DNA of 63,763 nucleotides, the filler included, from Bdellovibrionota bacterium (GTDB lineage Bacteria; Bdellovibrionota; Bdellovibrionia; Bdellovibrionales; JAEYZS01): the NCBI GenBank assembly GCA_963169515.1. It is 3 parts of 3 records of this genome, joined end to end, with 100 filler letters (N's around TTAATTAATTAA, not from the genome) between each part and the next. Parts side by side here need not be neighbours in the genome. Positions count along the whole stretch, not along the records: positions 1 to 26,225 come from CAUJEF010000093.1; 2 more parts are not named here. One strand, given 5' to 3'. Below, in pieces: positions 1 through 6,000 of this stretch. The position numbers were made by a program. Position 1 is the first letter of the stretch; each line of letters opens with the position of its first letter.

Positions 1-3000
1 AGCACAGAACCTACGACACCGTCAGGAGTTATGACAGCCTGGCCGGCAACGATGCCAGATTTTTTTCCCTTATTGATAATAAGGGTCGCGTGTTGGCGAA
101 GTAGGTCGTGCCCAATAACTTTTGCGGGAATTAATTCAAACGGAGTTGTTTCTTTAAAATCAAGTAGGCGAGACAGCCTTTGATTTTCGAGGCGAATTTC
201 CTCTAGCTGTACAAGCTGTGCCTTCAGCATAGAGACTTCATTTTGTAAATTTTTATTGTCTTTTTTTATGTCGATCAAATTTAAGTATTGGGAAGTGGTA
301 CCCCGAACCTGAGAGCTGAAGCCGACATAGAGTTTTTGCAGACTTGTCGACACAATGTAGAAAGGTTTCAAAAACCAATCTATATCTCCCGACTTACGCT
401 GAACGTTAATCGTCAGAATTGGAACTGCAATGATCAAGCAGAGGAAAATGAGTTTTTTTAAACTAAGCGGAAAAAGCCCCAAACGGTCACCCCTATGTCT
501 CTTTTAGGGTATCAAAATTTCAGCGAAAGTTTCAATCATTTAAAGTTAAAGATGTGGCTTAAGAAAAGGCTTGATATGTGACGGAAAAATGATTGAAATG
601 AGATCCTTAAATAGGGAGAGTTCTCATGCTCGATCAACTGAAGAAAAATGTGACTAAAAAAAATCTTATTGCCTGGCTCATTTTCGGCGCAATCATCATC
701 GTATTTGTGTTTTTTGGATTTTCGTCAAATATGGGTGCTGGTGGCGGGTATGCGGCCCGCGTTAACAATGAATTGATCTCAATTCGTGACTTTCAAACTG
801 CAACGGAAAATATGTCGAGATACAAGTTCTTATATGGCGATGGGCCCGACGCAGACAAAAATATTCGCAATAACGCAATTAATCAACTTATTGATTTGGA
901 ATTGATTTCACAGTTTGCCCAAAAAGGCGGATTCAGAGTTTCAGACGCTGAGATTGTTGACAGCATTATGAGTAATGAGGGGTTTTTGGAAAACGGAAAA
1001 TTTCAGCGCTCAAACTATGAGCGTTACCTTCAATACGATTCAACTTTTGAAAAGCGCTTACGCAAACAGCTATTGTATCAAAAATTCATGAAAGTGTTGC
1101 AGTCGAGTTTTGTGACTTCGGATTTGGAAGTTGAAAAGGCAAAGCTATTGAAATCCAACCAAATGAATCTTGAGTTTATAAAGCTTGAACCGACTAAAAA
1201 TGAAAAGCTAAAAGATGGAGACGTTAAAGCCCAAATTAATGATATTGCCGCAATTTATGCGACAAACCCCAATGAGGCTGTCAAACGAGCTCAAGGATTG
1301 GGTTTGAAATGGGAGGAAACGGGTCCATTCACTTTAGAGGCTACGGATATTCCAAAAATTGGAAGAAACACTCAATTGATTGCAGACGCGTTTAGCTTGG
1401 AAAGAGGCGCTTTGGGCAAACGCCTGTATGACGCTTTCGGGACGCAATATATCGTGAGGCTCAAAGAAAAGAAAATTGTTACTCCAAAAGAGTCCGAAGG
1501 TATGTCCGATCGTATGGTTGCTTATCCGCGGATTAACAATGTTTTAGTGAACTGGAAAAAAGAAATTCGTGAGCAGAGCAAAGTGGATTTAAGCCCGACA
1601 ATTGCAAGAATGTTGGAATAAAAGATTAGTTCGCTTTTACGAGTTGTTTGGTCCAAGTATGGATTGTAAGCAACGATTTTTCTTGGACTTCGACGAAGCT
1701 TACACCAAAGCTGCCGCCATTTTCATTGCACCAAACGATCTTGCCGTGAACCTCAACGAATTCTTTTCCGTCTGGGGACTCGATGACCATTCGGACTTTG
1801 TCAGACATTGCCAGATGCTGGTCTGTTTTGAGCTCTAAACCGCCAATTGAAATTGTGCCGACAGATCCCAAGAATTCGCCGCGAATAGTTTCGACGTAAA
1901 TTTTTGAACCGAGCTTGAAACGATCCCAACGGCGTCGCGTTTGACCTTGCGTTTTGAGGGCCATTGCAAGCGCGAACGGGAGTGCAATCAAAAGTCCCAC
2001 AAGAACTATGTTTAGTGTCATGTTGTGAGGACCTTGAAATTTTGTTTGGTTGTCATTGTAGTCTTTGTAGAGTTTAGAAACTAATCCGCAGCCCCCGCCA
2101 CTTTGCATATCTGATGCGGGCCCACGGTTACCATTGGCTGAAACGTCATAAGAGGGTTGGTACGTATCTACGGCCGCTGATTGAGCAGCATTCAGTGAAT
2201 ACAGGGCATTCACGCGACCGCCAGTTTGGACAACGCCATTAAGATTTGATTTTGTGTCGACATTGTTTAATATCAGTTGCTTCAATTGATAGCCATTCAT
2301 TGTTTGCTTTTCACGAGCCATGATGGCCACGACTCCTGATACGAATGGAGCTGCCATACTGGTGCCCGATAGACTTGCATACATATTATTGAGGTATGTG
2401 CTGTAAATGCCCACACCTGGGGATGCAAGATGTACTTTCGAAACGCCGTAGTTTGAAAATGATGCAAGATTGTCTGCATCTGTTGTTGCTGAGACAGAAA
2501 TAATATTAGGTACATTATATGAGGCCGGATACATCGGGCTTACGTCGTTATTGAGGCCCGAGTTCCCGGCAGCGGCGACAAACGAAGCCTGGTGGGAATA
2601 AGAGTAAGCGATAGCTTCATGGAGCGAGTATGAGTAGCTTCCCCCGCCCCAGGAGTTATTGAGAACCCGTGCACCATTATTCACAGCATAATATATCGAT
2701 TGGACCGCCGCAGAGGTTGTTCCGTTGCCATTGCAGTCCAAAAATTTCACGGCCATTAATTTTATTTTTGCAGCAGGAAGGGGATTGGCCAAAATATCTT
2801 GGCTTGTCCCGCGAATAATGCCGGCTACGTGTGTTCCATGTCCGTCACAGTCATCGGGATTGTTGTTATTATTCACAAAATTCCAGCCGTTGATATCATC
2901 GACAAAACCATTGCCGTCGTCATCAATTCCGTTACTTGGAATTTCGCCGGTGTTCGCCCAAAGCGCGCTAGACAAATCAACGTGCTGAAGATCGATACCC

Positions 3001-6000
3001 GTATCGATCACCGCGATGGTAGGTTTATATGAGGTGGATGACATTTGTGCCCAAGCTTCGGGAATTTCAACCGGAGCGCCCGTCTGGGAATAAGAAATAT
3101 TTTGTGCGCCAACCTCTGCGTCGCTGTTTGAGTACTCATTAAAAAGAACTTCGAACTGTTCCTTTGTCATGACCTCGTCAGGCAGGTTCTCTGTGGCTTT
3201 TTTTAGATAGTAGTTTGGCTCGGCGTATTCTACGTTCGGGTCTTGCATCAGATCTTGGGCTGCAGCTTCAACGTCATCACCTGGCTTTAATGCAAAGTGA
3301 TCCATATTGAGACCGTGCCAAGATGATTTTAGGCTCATTCCCTTTTCGTTCATTATTTTTTGAGATGCAGATTGAGCTGAGGCAGAAAATTTTTTGCCCT
3401 TATATTTAACGATAAGTTCGCCAGGGACGTAGTCTTGGGCATGGGCAGACACTGATATCGTCAAGATAAACAAGATTAATCTATTGAGTTTTACGTCCAC
3501 GATACATTCCCCCAACCTTTTACTTTTCGGAGGCCAGGACGTTTTTTTAAAGACGAAAGTCGAGGTCAATAGAGATATTTTTAAAAATTAAAAGCGCACG
3601 CTATTAAAGATTTAAAGGTGTCTTGGCCTATTTTAGTGTCTCAACATGAGACACTAAAACGGCGGGCTGTTTGATAGTTTTACGGATAAGAACAGAACAC
3701 TTGAATTTGTTCTGGGTTACCGGCAAAGGTATTTCCGCAAAGGTTTCTATTTGCGACATCCATGATTTTTTCAATCTTTGTTCGGAAGCTTGGAAGAAGC
3801 GCATATTGGATTGCCTCTTGATCCCAAAACTTCTTATCAAAAAGATTAAATATGTCTTCATCGGCCATGGCCTGATAATTTTCTCCGGCATTGGCAGAAT
3901 AGGTAATCATTGTGAGAACTAATCCTGCAGTGGCGCGAAGCCCATAATTTCCTGCTCTAAGAGCCGCTTGACCCGGGTTTGTTTTAATGAAAATCCATGC
4001 CGCCCCTAAGCCCGCGCCGATAGTAGCCCATAAAGCAACTTCCGGTTCGTATGTCGTTTTGATTTTTTTTAGAGTCTCTTGATCTACAGCCTGAAAAATT
4101 TGTCTAAGTGCTAAAAACTTACCAATATAGATTTGGTCGATTTCGCGTCGGTCGACTGAATCGCCACTGCGATTTCCTGATGACCAATCGACGTCGTCCC
4201 AATTCCTGTCAGTTCCGCCAACGCTATCCGGAGAGTATTCGCCGTGTGTATCGTCGATGCTGCCGTCTTTACTGCCAGATCGGTCACTGCCACGATCAGG
4301 GCCTGATGATCGTGACCGATCAGGTGTGCTGCCTGCGGCAAAGCCAATGTTTGAAATTAATGTAAGGGCTAAAAAGCTACTTAAAATCGTATTCATGGGG
4401 TCCTTTCGTGGGACCCCATTATAGACGAAGTTGGCCTGATATTCCCGCCTGTATACAGTAGCTTATAAAGATTACATCGACGATGCAAACAATGTGGTCA
4501 CTTATATTGTGGTTTCAAATCTTTCCAGCAGCTTAAGTAGTTCTTTTGTAGCAGGCCGCTATTAAGCGGGGATGGGGTGACATCAAATGGATATTGGCTT
4601 TCAAACATGAAGGCCATGGTGTTTTCAATTTTTTGTGGTTTCAGATTCTCGGCGCTGGCGTTTTCAAAAGTAATGGCGTCCGGGCCATGGCCCGACATAC
4701 GGTTGTGAAGGCTTGCCCCCCCGGGCAAAAAGCCCTCCTTTTTTGCGTCATATTCGCCATGAATAAGACCCATAAATTCACTCATGTAGTTTCGGTGGTA
4801 ATATGGCGGACGAAATGTATTTTCACCCACGAGCCACCGAGGAGGAAAGATAACAAAATCAATATTAGCCGTCCCTGTATCCACTGATGGCGATGTTAGA
4901 ACAGTAAAAATAGACGGGTCAGGGTGATCGAAGCTGATGGACCCAATCGTATTAAAATCGTTCAGGTTGTATTTATAGGGATAGTAATTCCCGTGCCACC
5001 CGACAACATTTAGGGGGGACTGTTTTAATTCCGAGGACCAAAAGTTACCACCAAATTTTGTAATCCATCGGACAGTTTTTTTTGTATCTTCGAACCAGGC
5101 GGTTGGAATTTTAAAATCACGAGCATTGGCAAGGCCATTGGCACCTATGGGACCGAGTTCAGGGAGCTGAAAGGGGCTACCATAGTTTTCGCAAATATAA
5201 CCACGAGCATTTTTTCCCAACAGTTCAGCTTTGAATTTTATTCCGCGTGGAATGACGGCGATTTCATTTGGAGAAACTTCGAGTTGTCCCATTTCAGTCG
5301 CCAAAAGAAGGGCCCCTTCTTGTGGGACAAAGAGCATTTGTCCGTCAGCATTTGAAAAATAATCTTTCATGGATTCGTTGCAGCTATACATATGGACGGC
5401 ACAGCCGACGTTCATTTTTAAGTTTCCATTGCCACAGTAGGTTGTTACGGAATCAATTAAATTCACGTCTATTTTAGGAAATGGGAAAGGGTCCCACCGC
5501 AATTGCAATGGACTTTGTTGATCGTTGATTGGGAAGCTTTGCCATGAGCTGTGTTTATAGGGTTTAAATTCAGAGTGAACTGCAGAGGGCAATATACGAT
5601 ACATCCACGAGCGTAAGTTGCGTGCGCGTGGTGCCGTAAATGCAGAGCCATTGATTTGCTCGGCATACAGACCATGGGCAACTTTCTGTGGGGAGTTTTG
5701 CCCGAGAGGGAGTGTGTTCTTGACGACTTCGGTCGAGATGTAATTTCCTAGACCTGATTCGTAATGGATCTTTGAACTCATGCCCCACGTTCTCAAAATG
5801 ACGTAAAAAAGGCCAGTATTTTCTCAAAAAATAACCTCTGAAATCCGATCAGTGGGTATGCGATTGTTATTTGTAATGTGCCTAGTTTTGTTTGGGTTTT
5901 CGGCATTTGCTGAAATTGATGTCGAAGACCAAATTCGTATGGCCGAAGATCCAAATTATTTGGAGTATCTTCGCGAAAGGGATCGCGAAGAGGCACATGA

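Follow-up and report, generated by a model that had tools for sequence, protein, structure and literature searches.

Gene and feature organisation

The window, the whole stretch of 63,763 nucleotides analysed here, comes from a Bdellovibrionota bacterium (GCA_963169515.1) and carries on its minus strand a gene confirmed from its sequence as real, which encodes a signal peptide, a propeptide, an intact subtilisin, one helix and a cytoplasmic PilZ domain. One contig from a separate study (run X4) covers this whole gene region unbroken, and RNA runs contain just small pieces of it as contigs. The features are as follows.

1626..3500, minus strand: whole gene (GTG start, 624 aa), orthologous to Bd2545 of B. 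bacteriovorus
3525..3550, minus strand: sigma28/FliA-type promoter by sequence (-35 TTAAA, 3546-3550; -10 CCGAAA, 3525-3530), putatively functional here
3438..3500, minus strand: predicted Sec-type signal peptide, residues 1-21 (AHA/QD); throughout the aligned family, a hydrophobic stretch lies ahead of the mature start
3213..3449, minus strand: N-terminal propeptide PF22148, residues 18-96 (Pfam, E 5e-15)
2250..3026, minus strand: S8 subtilisin domain PF00082, residues 159-417 (Pfam, E 9e-55)
3003-3005, 2838-2840, 2562-2564 and 2358-2360, minus strand: catalytic and oxyanion residues D166, H221, N313 and S381, respectively
2112..2126, minus strand: R-x-[P/L]-A-S motif RGPAS, residues 459-463, in the disordered spacer (alignment)
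2079..2099, minus strand: cysteine-tag signature GGGCGLV, residues 468-474, with C471 at 2088-2090
2016..2084, minus strand: amphipathic helix, residues 473-483, followed by the variable Gly/Ser/Pro linker, residues 484-495
1956..2015, minus strand: single transmembrane helix, residues 496-515, with invariant P508 (hydrophobicity and alignment)
1920..1934, minus strand: PilZ motif 1, R523xxxR527, at the position of the tag's basic cluster
1839..1856, minus strand: PilZ motif 2, TISIGG, residues 549-554, where Thr replaces the canonical Asp/Asn
1656..1937, minus strand: cytoplasmic PilZ domain PF07238, residues 522-615 (Pfam, E 5e-13)

This anatomy, proposed by the genome-wide survey's note, is borne out by the Pfam matches and by hydrophobicity, as a single segment of the protein stands out as strongly hydrophobic (KD 2.45 in its best windows, 496-515). 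The cytoplasmic placement of the PilZ domain, also claimed there, is supported by the sequence because Lys and Arg are more numerous on the C-side than on the N-side of the helix in 43/43 homologues (mean 5.9 vs 1.0), with RRRWDR at residues 522-527. AF2 had been described as poor for the whole protein; run with an alignment, it gives a pLDDT of 89.1, with confidence <50 at residues 459-470 and 487-493.

Subtilisin domain and family distribution

The subtilisin domain contains the Asp-His-Ser triad and the oxyanion Asn, is preceded by a propeptide, and is predicted from its sequence to be an intact protease. D166, H221, N313 and S381 are each invariant in 40/40 homologues, which agrees with the survey for D166 and S381. 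The survey had named H224 as the catalytic histidine; both histidines are invariant, and we take the catalytic one to be H221, with which HGTH begins. The best fold match of the domain is deseasin MCP-01 (3vv3, E 2e-30). Column identity is 0.69 in the S8 domain, 0.63 in the PilZ domain and 0.29 in the linker.

The family, once counted as eight clusters, is in fact widespread: residues 441-624 are matched by 250/301 genomes of the class, and the gene is single-copy in 59/64 genomes. The B. bacteriovorus locus L037 aligns to residues 5-624 with 43% identity. The family set of 43 omits L033, L040 (partial) and L031 (duplicate) and includes close relatives, so the 61 representatives of clusters at 50% identity provide the more independent count. 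Bd2545 shares the architecture of the gene in the window, but its neighbours differ (a Mg transporter at Bd2545 vs surA/mreC here). Recurring neighbours across the family read as surA-, mreC- and MgtE-like, and flanks of 1.5-6 kb revealed no conserved operon that would include a substrate or processing gene.

Nine orthologues in eight genomes lack the PilZ domain, and all of them keep the cysteine and the helix described below. On a sequence tree that left out 11 of 65 rows, which the motif for excising the domain had passed over (five with a divergent PilZ, three PilZ-less and three outgroup), their distribution needs four changes, at least three of which are forced by starred branches; by this tree the tag has outlived the PilZ domain in at least three independent losses. 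A proposal that PilZ disappears together with c-di-GMP synthesis failed, as GGDEF was found in 80/80 genomes; genomes with PilZ-less orthologues do have fewer GGDEF copies (1-3).

PilZ domain

The C-terminal domain has the PilZ barrel fold according to Pfam, AF2 (pLDDT >90 over the domain) and its best fold match, the PilZ domain of Alg44 with c-di-GMP (4rt0, E 1.7e-6). The RxxxR motif, reported by the survey as invariant, is indeed present in 43/43 family members and 61/61 cluster representatives, where it lies 15-22 residues beyond the helix proline. The second motif departs from the canonical [D/N]xSxxG, with Thr at the first position here, aligned to the Asp of VCA0042. The survey had noted T/C at this position; replacement of D/N is the rule (56/61 representatives; kept in 5/61), with Thr and Ser as the main substitutes and Cys a minor one (T31 S21 C4 N4 D1). 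The Ser of the motif is kept in 58/61 and the Gly in 61/61. Among fast-evolving members, RxxxR is retained in 7/7 printed sequences and the canonical D/N is found in 5/8. A PilZ domain with xxSEGG has measured c-di-GMP binding of 2.88 uM. Residues beyond both binding motifs (SPDG, VVW, YGVxF and W616) are strongly conserved. Taken on its sequence, the PilZ domain of the subtilisin may bind c-di-GMP.

Cysteine C-terminal tag

The CGLV motif before the helix was reported by the survey as invariant; in the family set, G470, C471 and G472 are each found in 43/43 members and residue 474 is V or I in 43/43. The survey overlooked that the motif belongs to a shared element. Judged from sequence, it looks like part of a cysteine C-terminal sorting tag recognised by no NCBIfam model, in which GCGx[VI] is followed by a linker, a Pro-containing Leu-rich helix and a basic cluster. 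The cysteine is present in 60/61 representatives, and no other Cys occurs within the 445 residues preceding it in 30/40 proteins. The helix proline is kept in 43/43 family members and 60/61 representatives.

The same tag occurs at the true C-terminus of exported proteins that are otherwise unrelated and share with the PilZ subtilisins only the invariant cysteine, the helix and the basic cluster. These comprise matrixins, C25 giants (from frames of 2488 and 3539 aa), subtilisins without PilZ, one SCE4755-like protein, and a Gly-rich family in which 25/25 fetched members are tagged (25 loci of the 45 genomes with a match); some tagged proteins belong to no recognised enzyme family. In a leave-family-out comparison, a model built on the S8 tags alone gives 16/25 tails of the Gly-rich family a higher score than any of 2182 control C-termini, and with the reverse model 41/43 S8 tags outscore every one of these controls; the leave-family-out scores of 11 extra clients are partly circular, as these were chosen with the tag model. 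GC or CG stands ahead of the helix in just 5/149 helix-tailed controls. NCBIfam scans gave no CTERM match in the protein, in homologue tails or in 17 other tagged proteins or tails, six-frame searches with known CTERM models gave none over cut-off at tagged genes, and the ESM Atlas returned no usable match for residues 440-530. The tag appears to be undescribed so far.

In the PilZ subtilisins, a greater distance separates the cysteine from the helix than in terminal tags. The distance from the cysteine to the helix proline varies from 26 to 47 residues, whereas distances within the domains are nearly fixed, and the linker core consists of 32% Gly, 14% Ser and 12% Pro. The stretch directly after the cysteine forms an amphipathic helix, whose hydrophobic moment exceeds that of shuffled sequences in 41/43 members and which is also present in AF2. 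The R-x-[P/L]-A-S motif is conserved at R in 41, A in 36 and S in 34 of 43 members; in the organism's own proteome RxPAS occurs 16 times vs 7.2 expected, and KxPAS 3 times vs 11.

Comparison with known sorting systems and candidate processing enzymes

MYXO-CTERM (TIGR03901), JDVT-CTERM (NF033191) and Synerg-CTERM (TIGR04564), which work with CPBP myxosortases, are likewise tripartite: they join an invariant Cys to a helix and a basic cluster and occur on exported proteins that are unrelated to one another. As in Synerg-CTERM, the Leu-rich helix of the present tag holds an invariant Pro, which the helix of MYXO-CTERM lacks, and as in JDVT-CTERM, clients per genome are few. The present tag differs from these systems in its CGx[VI] motif, its longer and variable spacer, the lack of a co-occurring CPBP enzyme, and a main client that carries the tag internally, with a PilZ domain behind it. 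The three models gave 0/5 genomes each (over cut-off for TIGR03901 and TIGR04564), and the adjacent CPBP gene that goes, along with a DP motif, with JDVT-CTERM has no counterpart, PF02517 not being found in the organism's own genome (96% complete). GlyGly-CTERM (TIGR03501) gave two marginal matches elsewhere and none at the PilZ-subtilisin gene. In the GlyGly-CTERM/rhombosortase system, the Vibrio serine protease VesB is tethered through a Gly-rich motif and helix at its C-terminus, then cleaved and delivered to the surface; the tethering resembles that proposed here, but the present tag has an invariant Cys and no rhomboid of rhombosortase level. MXAN_5598 bears a MYXO-CTERM that is internal and is proposed to be processed, as is the mid-protein tag here, except that it precedes outer-membrane domains rather than a cytoplasmic second-messenger receptor.

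No cognate sortase or processing enzyme was found among CPBP, PrsW, the myxosortase core, rhombosortase and rhomboids. CPBP (PF02517) is present in only 72/151 genomes of the class and was not found in the gene-holding genomes G000, G027, G115, G019 and G024-G026. The myxosortase core (NF040914) gave 0/30 above cut-off, PrsW 0/5 genomes and rhombosortase 0/5 genomes, with no rhomboid above the rhombosortase cut-off. Rhomboids do not track the tag, because they are found in 48/48 genomes, including those without a tag match; the tag-positive genomes G035, G051, G056 and G001 have a single rhomboid match each.

The orthologue Bd2545

Bd2545 (NP_969350.1, Q6MK66) was printed as 'Subt-PilZ' in a 2008 listing (Table 3 of PMC2605481) and designated a pilZ gene in 2010 (PMC2797640), so the architecture is not new. 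The texts consulted on Bd2545 nowhere describe its helix, cysteine tag, binding or function. Its mapped start site is marked 'FliA site: yes', and its reads number 74,351 in attack phase vs 8 in growth phase (both from PMC3627812). The FliA consensus is TTAAG-N16-CCGATA, and a loose pattern of this type lies upstream of 15/42 homologues vs 0.7 expected from shuffles. In PMC12546842 the protein is represented by 13 peptides; its level stays constant between attack phase and 1 h, without a drop at invasion, in samples blind to release into prey, and declines between 2 and 4 h. The probable 109J orthologue, mapped by gene order only, has a Tn-seq fitness of 0.96-1.46, i.e. no defect, in a pooled host-independent strain. 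Bd2545 is absent from the displayed part of a host-independent supernatant protease table, which is uninformative because the gene is low in the host-independent state.

Interpretation

The reading preferred here is that c-di-GMP gates the processing or export of a tagged attack-phase protease, to which we assign a probability of roughly 0.4. It builds on the observed anatomy, conservation, shared tag, repeated PilZ loss and published expression of Bd2545. In attack phase, Sec would export the subtilisin, and a cysteine C-terminal tag of a Bdellovibrionota type would keep it in the inner membrane. If the tag behaves like MYXO-, JDVT- and Synerg-CTERM, its cysteine may be lipidated and the helix cut off, after which the protease would be handed to the periplasm or cell surface. 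In the PilZ subtilisin alone among the clients, the basic cluster runs on into a PilZ domain, and c-di-GMP at the membrane-adjoining RxxxR might decide if, when or where processing of the tag takes place, so that the messenger would govern deployment of the protease and not its active site. The occurrence of the tag on unrelated exported proteins, a PilZ domain nearly as conserved as the protease, c-di-GMP binding by a PilZ with xxSEGG and the precedent of an internal MYXO-CTERM favour gating, while the failure to find a processing enzyme, the longer way from cysteine to helix, the replaced D/N, the lack of a Tn-seq defect, the constant protein level up to 1 h and PilZ loss unlinked to GGDEF loss count against it.

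The absence of a sortase that tracks the tag would also suit an uncleaved inner-membrane anchor, with the cysteine lipidated or disulfide-linked and the PilZ domain docking the protease to a partner in the cytoplasm (the pole, the flagellar motor or a secretion machine), with or without c-di-GMP. Such docking would account for the strong conservation outside the binding motifs, for the FliA promoter, which motor-binding PilZ proteins also have, and for a Bd2545 protein that is cell-associated and steady through invasion. This anchor is nevertheless on the unlikely side, as an invariant, mostly unpaired Cys combined with a helix Pro that is also invariant, on proteins otherwise unrelated, is the published hallmark of processed tags, and some clients come from families that NCBIfam names associate with myxosortase, although they stay below cut-off. 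Clearly less probable is that the helix-PilZ piece, once released by cutting of the tag, serves in the cytoplasm as a c-di-GMP effector or sink, or that c-di-GMP on the PilZ domain marks the protein for growth-phase removal; the very high attack-phase transcript of Bd2545, the fall of its protein between 2 and 4 h and the PilZ conservation are compatible with it, but transcription shut-off and growth dilution explain the fall, and the free fragment is hypothetical.

The model of the survey, in which c-di-GMP binding shifts the single helix and directly switches the periplasmic catalytic domain, as LapD-LapG in one chain, is equally improbable. The architecture and topology fit it, RxxxR lies close behind the helix proline, and the amphipathic helix after the cysteine could couple the two sides if the protein dimerises. 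Direct control of catalysis is disfavoured because the spacer is long, Gly-rich and variable, and low AF2 confidence on both flanks, the repeated loss of PilZ with retention of the remainder, and the same module on proteins outside recognised enzyme families also argue against it. LapD, which has a degenerate EAL domain and acts on a separate cysteine protease, functions as a dimer through its HAMP domain, and HAMP is absent from the Pfam matches of the present protein. LapD-LapG, Alg44 and BcsA do join a cytoplasmic c-di-GMP receptor to an extracytoplasmic output, as proposed here, but Alg44 and BcsA control polymer synthases, whereas the PilZ subtilisin has a single helix and a flexible spacer. 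Of the survey's alternative that PilZ controls activity or release, release stands as a possible output, while its LapD-LapG comparison overlooks that unrelated exported proteins share the membrane segment as a module.

A broader form of the gating reading, which we consider somewhat unlikely, is that the Bdellovibrionota own a cysteine C-terminal sorting system with a non-CPBP enzyme, in which the arginine cluster of one near-universal client has turned into a PilZ switch for second-messenger-gated release and display of an attack-phase protease. Sorting signals in the accounts consulted act as constitutive address labels; a c-di-GMP receptor replacing the cytoplasmic tail of a tag would, if true, tie the life-cycle messenger of the predator directly to protein deployment. 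Cleavage, lipidation and surface delivery through the tag are suggested by analogy, and the tag points to a putative processing enzyme. Even without gating, it flags likely surface or envelope enzymes of predators among subtilisins, matrixins and C25 giants, and the orthologue Bd2545 lies in B. bacteriovorus, a harmless model amenable to genetics.

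Architecture and distribution of the protease

The window gene is the orthologue of Bd2545, and it is arranged as follows.

1626-3500, minus strand: Bd2545 orthologue gene, 624 aa
Residues 18-96: propeptide (Pfam)
Residues 159-417: Peptidase_S8 (Pfam)
Residues 522-615: PilZ (Pfam)
3525-3550: FliA-type promoter, as for Bd2545

These Pfam matches and a single strong hydrophobic segment (residues 496-515) bear out the order of propeptide, S8 domain, one helix and PilZ described in the genome-wide survey's note, and lysine plus arginine are richer on the C-side of the helix than on its N-side in 43/43 homologues. 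D166, H221, N313 and S381 of the subtilisin domain are invariant (40/40), and the catalytic histidine, placed at H224 in the note, is H221, the first histidine of HGTH. The AF2 model of the whole protein, reported there as poor, reaches pLDDT 89.1 and pTM 0.72 with a 42-sequence alignment, confidence being low only near residues 129-132, 459-470 and 487-493. Its best fold match is deseasin MCP-01, while the C-terminal part best matches the Alg44 PilZ domain in c-di-GMP-bound form. The complete stretch of the gene is also present on a contig from a separate study.

The architecture was proposed as new, but 'Subt-PilZ NP_969350.1' of B. bacteriovorus already appears in the available part of a 2008 survey (PMC2605481), and this accession is Bd2545 in the available data of PMC3627812. 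The family, formerly counted as eight clusters, is class-wide: residues 441-624 are matched in 250 of 301 class genomes (E<=0.001), and a family profile (E<=1e-12) finds one copy in 59/64 genomes of the class and a match in 1/187 outside it, within a 282-aa frame. Full-length named matches belong to Bdellovibrionales and Bdellovibrio records, B. bacteriovorus Bd16 among them.

A cysteine-containing C-terminal tag

The signature G470-C471-G472-x-[VI]474 and the helix proline P508 are found in 43/43 aligned homologues, and the 'CGLV motif' left unexplained in the note is part of it, C471 being invariant. Of 150 cluster representatives listed, 61 have an S8 domain as well; cysteine and proline are each kept in 60 of these 61, and in 30/40 proteins no earlier cysteine lies N-terminal to that of the tag.

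When the own genome (G000) was scanned by motif, the same design, CGx[VI], Pro-helix and basic residues, turned up at the true C-terminus of an unrelated exported protein.

G000:C140:1128-2744, minus strand: Gly-rich exported protein, ~540 aa (relatives L131-L155)

Its relatives occur in 45/151 class genomes and are tag-terminated in 25/25 fetched; the family has no Pfam match (three members scanned) and no NCBIfam match over cut-off. Recurring neighbours of the gene include histidine kinase and response regulator genes. Profile searches add matrixins, PilZ-less subtilisins, an SCE4755-like protein, C25-peptidase proteins and others, some of them from outside the class and some with a residue other than Gly after the cysteine. 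In the C25 proteins, from frames of 3539 aa (L190, G013) and 2488 aa (L168, G052), the peptidase domain is followed by the tag at the end. The tagged matrixin genes L171, L180 and L186 lie directly 3' of a gene for a ~210-225-aa protein, the end of which reads like that of an outer-membrane beta-barrel.

In a leave-family-out test, with the best score of 2182 control C-termini as threshold, a model built from S8 tags only places 16/25 Gly-rich-family tails above it, and the reverse model places 41/43 S8 tags above it. GC or CG precedes the helix in 5/149 helix-tailed controls. Eleven additional clients score high too, though they had been selected with a tag model beforehand. At E<=0.01, the tag model matches in 63/64 class genomes and in 30/187 non-class genomes, many of the latter weakly; 26 searched genomes with no orthologue found give five weak matches (E 0.002-0.045), four of them in frames of <50 aa.

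The tag shares its tripartite design with Cys-CTERM sorting signals, as described in the available text on these (bioRxiv 10.1101/2023.06.07.544157; PMC11980579), and is recognised by no existing model in NCBIfam scans and six-frame CTERM model searches. Bdellovibrio is unmentioned in the main text, supplements aside, of Haft on sorting signals. Neither the tag nor its fusion to PilZ was found in full-text literature searches, with subscription papers mostly outside their scope, or in the available parts of a 2026 review (PMC13689555) and PMC3271064. The architecture is known, and the tag appears to be undescribed.

A Bd2545-type gene was not found in any of 34 genomes searched in seven mostly small-genome genera of the same order (g38, g42, g50, g51, g68, g75 and g91; mostly 1.2-2.5 Mb), the tested members of which have almost no tag match and retain 1-3 GGDEF genes and 1-2 rhomboids. 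These lineages are possibly non-predatory or symbiotic.

PilZ as an addition to the tag

The full profile matches in 25/59 genomes having no match (51) or a weak match (8) to residues 441-624. Nine orthologues in eight genomes stop shortly past the helix, all nine keeping the cysteine and helix; one terminates in RRKYKKY, which resembles an RxxxR remnant, and three adjoin a surA-like gene, as the window gene does. In the S8-domain tree (54/65 rows used), PilZ-bearing and PilZ-less forms stand together on one side of a 99/99 branch, and the eight PilZ-less rows need four changes, at least three of them forced by starred branches. With PilZ at the base, these changes imply repeated PilZ loss, and the tag therefore persists without PilZ. 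PilZ is an add-on to the tag, its RxxxR occupying the site of the tag's basic cluster. In two genomes (L219 in G023, L221 in G068), the PilZ form coexists with a paralogue from its subtilisin clade that lacks PilZ. Tracking of PilZ loss with cyclase loss is rejected, as GGDEF is present in 80/80 genomes.

Within PilZ, RxxxR is kept in 61/61 sequences and, in motif 2, Ser in 58/61 and Gly in 61/61, while the D/N position holds T31, S21, C4, N4 and D1 of 61 (register checked against VCA0042). Column identity is nearly equal in PilZ (0.63) and protease (0.69). In eight fast-evolving orthologues, most of the PilZ residues characteristic of the family are gone, yet RxxxR is retained in 7/7 inspected, and D/N is present in 5/8. 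As seen in the available portions of the reports, an xxSEGG PilZ binds at 2.88 uM (bioRxiv 10.1101/2020.02.11.943704) and PixB binds although its second motif is altered (PMC8316039). The own genome has 12 PilZ and 5 GGDEF matches. The window PilZ domain probably binds c-di-GMP.

Expression of Bd2545

According to the data available from each source, Bd2545 is monocistronic with a marked FliA site, and its RPKM is 11,906 vs 4.3 (reads 74,351 vs 8) in attack vs growth phase, this order being taken from the sheet name (PMC3627812). A loose version of the FliA-type promoter occurs in 15/42 homologues vs 0.7 expected. Bd2545 is among the pilZ genes declining once the attack phase ends, its values dropping to 0.62/0.58 as prey is entered and to 0.13/0.10 when growth is host-independent (PMC2797640). 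Protein abundance (13 peptides) stays level between attack phase and 1 h (5.02-5.17) and has its minimum at 4 h (3.71), on the table's own scale (PMC12546842). Tn-seq fitness values are 0.96, 1.46, 1.06 and 1.25 for a probable orthologue, a subtilisin assigned purely by gene order as next after the magnesium transporter (PMC6561027).

Possible mechanism

A messenger receptor attached to a sorting tag would most simply serve to gate the handling of that tag, namely its lipidation, intramembrane cleavage, hand-over or placement, and gating by c-di-GMP is tentatively preferred (probability about 0.4). What weakens this reading most is that, among the candidate processing enzymes examined (CPBP, PrsW, myxosortase core, rhombosortase and rhomboids), none follows the tag in occurrence. 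An uncleaved anchor with PilZ as adaptor therefore stays close to gating, though it is itself rather doubtful.

The note had c-di-GMP control the activity or release of the subtilisin through the single helix. Release is a possible output, but the helix is unlikely to couple PilZ to the protease directly, since the cysteine-to-proline distance varies from 26 to 47 residues across a Gly/Ser/Pro linker, whereas spacing inside the domains is nearly fixed (S381-R429 = 48 in 39/43; R527-T549 = 22 in 43/43). Allosteric action on catalysis is thus improbable, and an outside-in or turnover role has a similarly low standing.

Other features of the window

Gene order is not shown across the N runs 26226-26325 and 55878-55977, as these join the separate contigs C93, C94 and C100. 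R-x-P-A-S is enriched in the own genome (16 vs 7.2 expected; KxPAS 3 vs 11 expected), occurring in the window at 2112-2126 (minus) and within 5852-6355 (plus), and in 14 further proteins, mostly within low-complexity portions of proteins whose N-terminus is hydrophobic. The motif may mark a point of cleavage or modification, possibly one used by the window protease. A near-perfect, REP-like palindrome of 82 bp lies at 24918-24999 and has ~11 genome copies.
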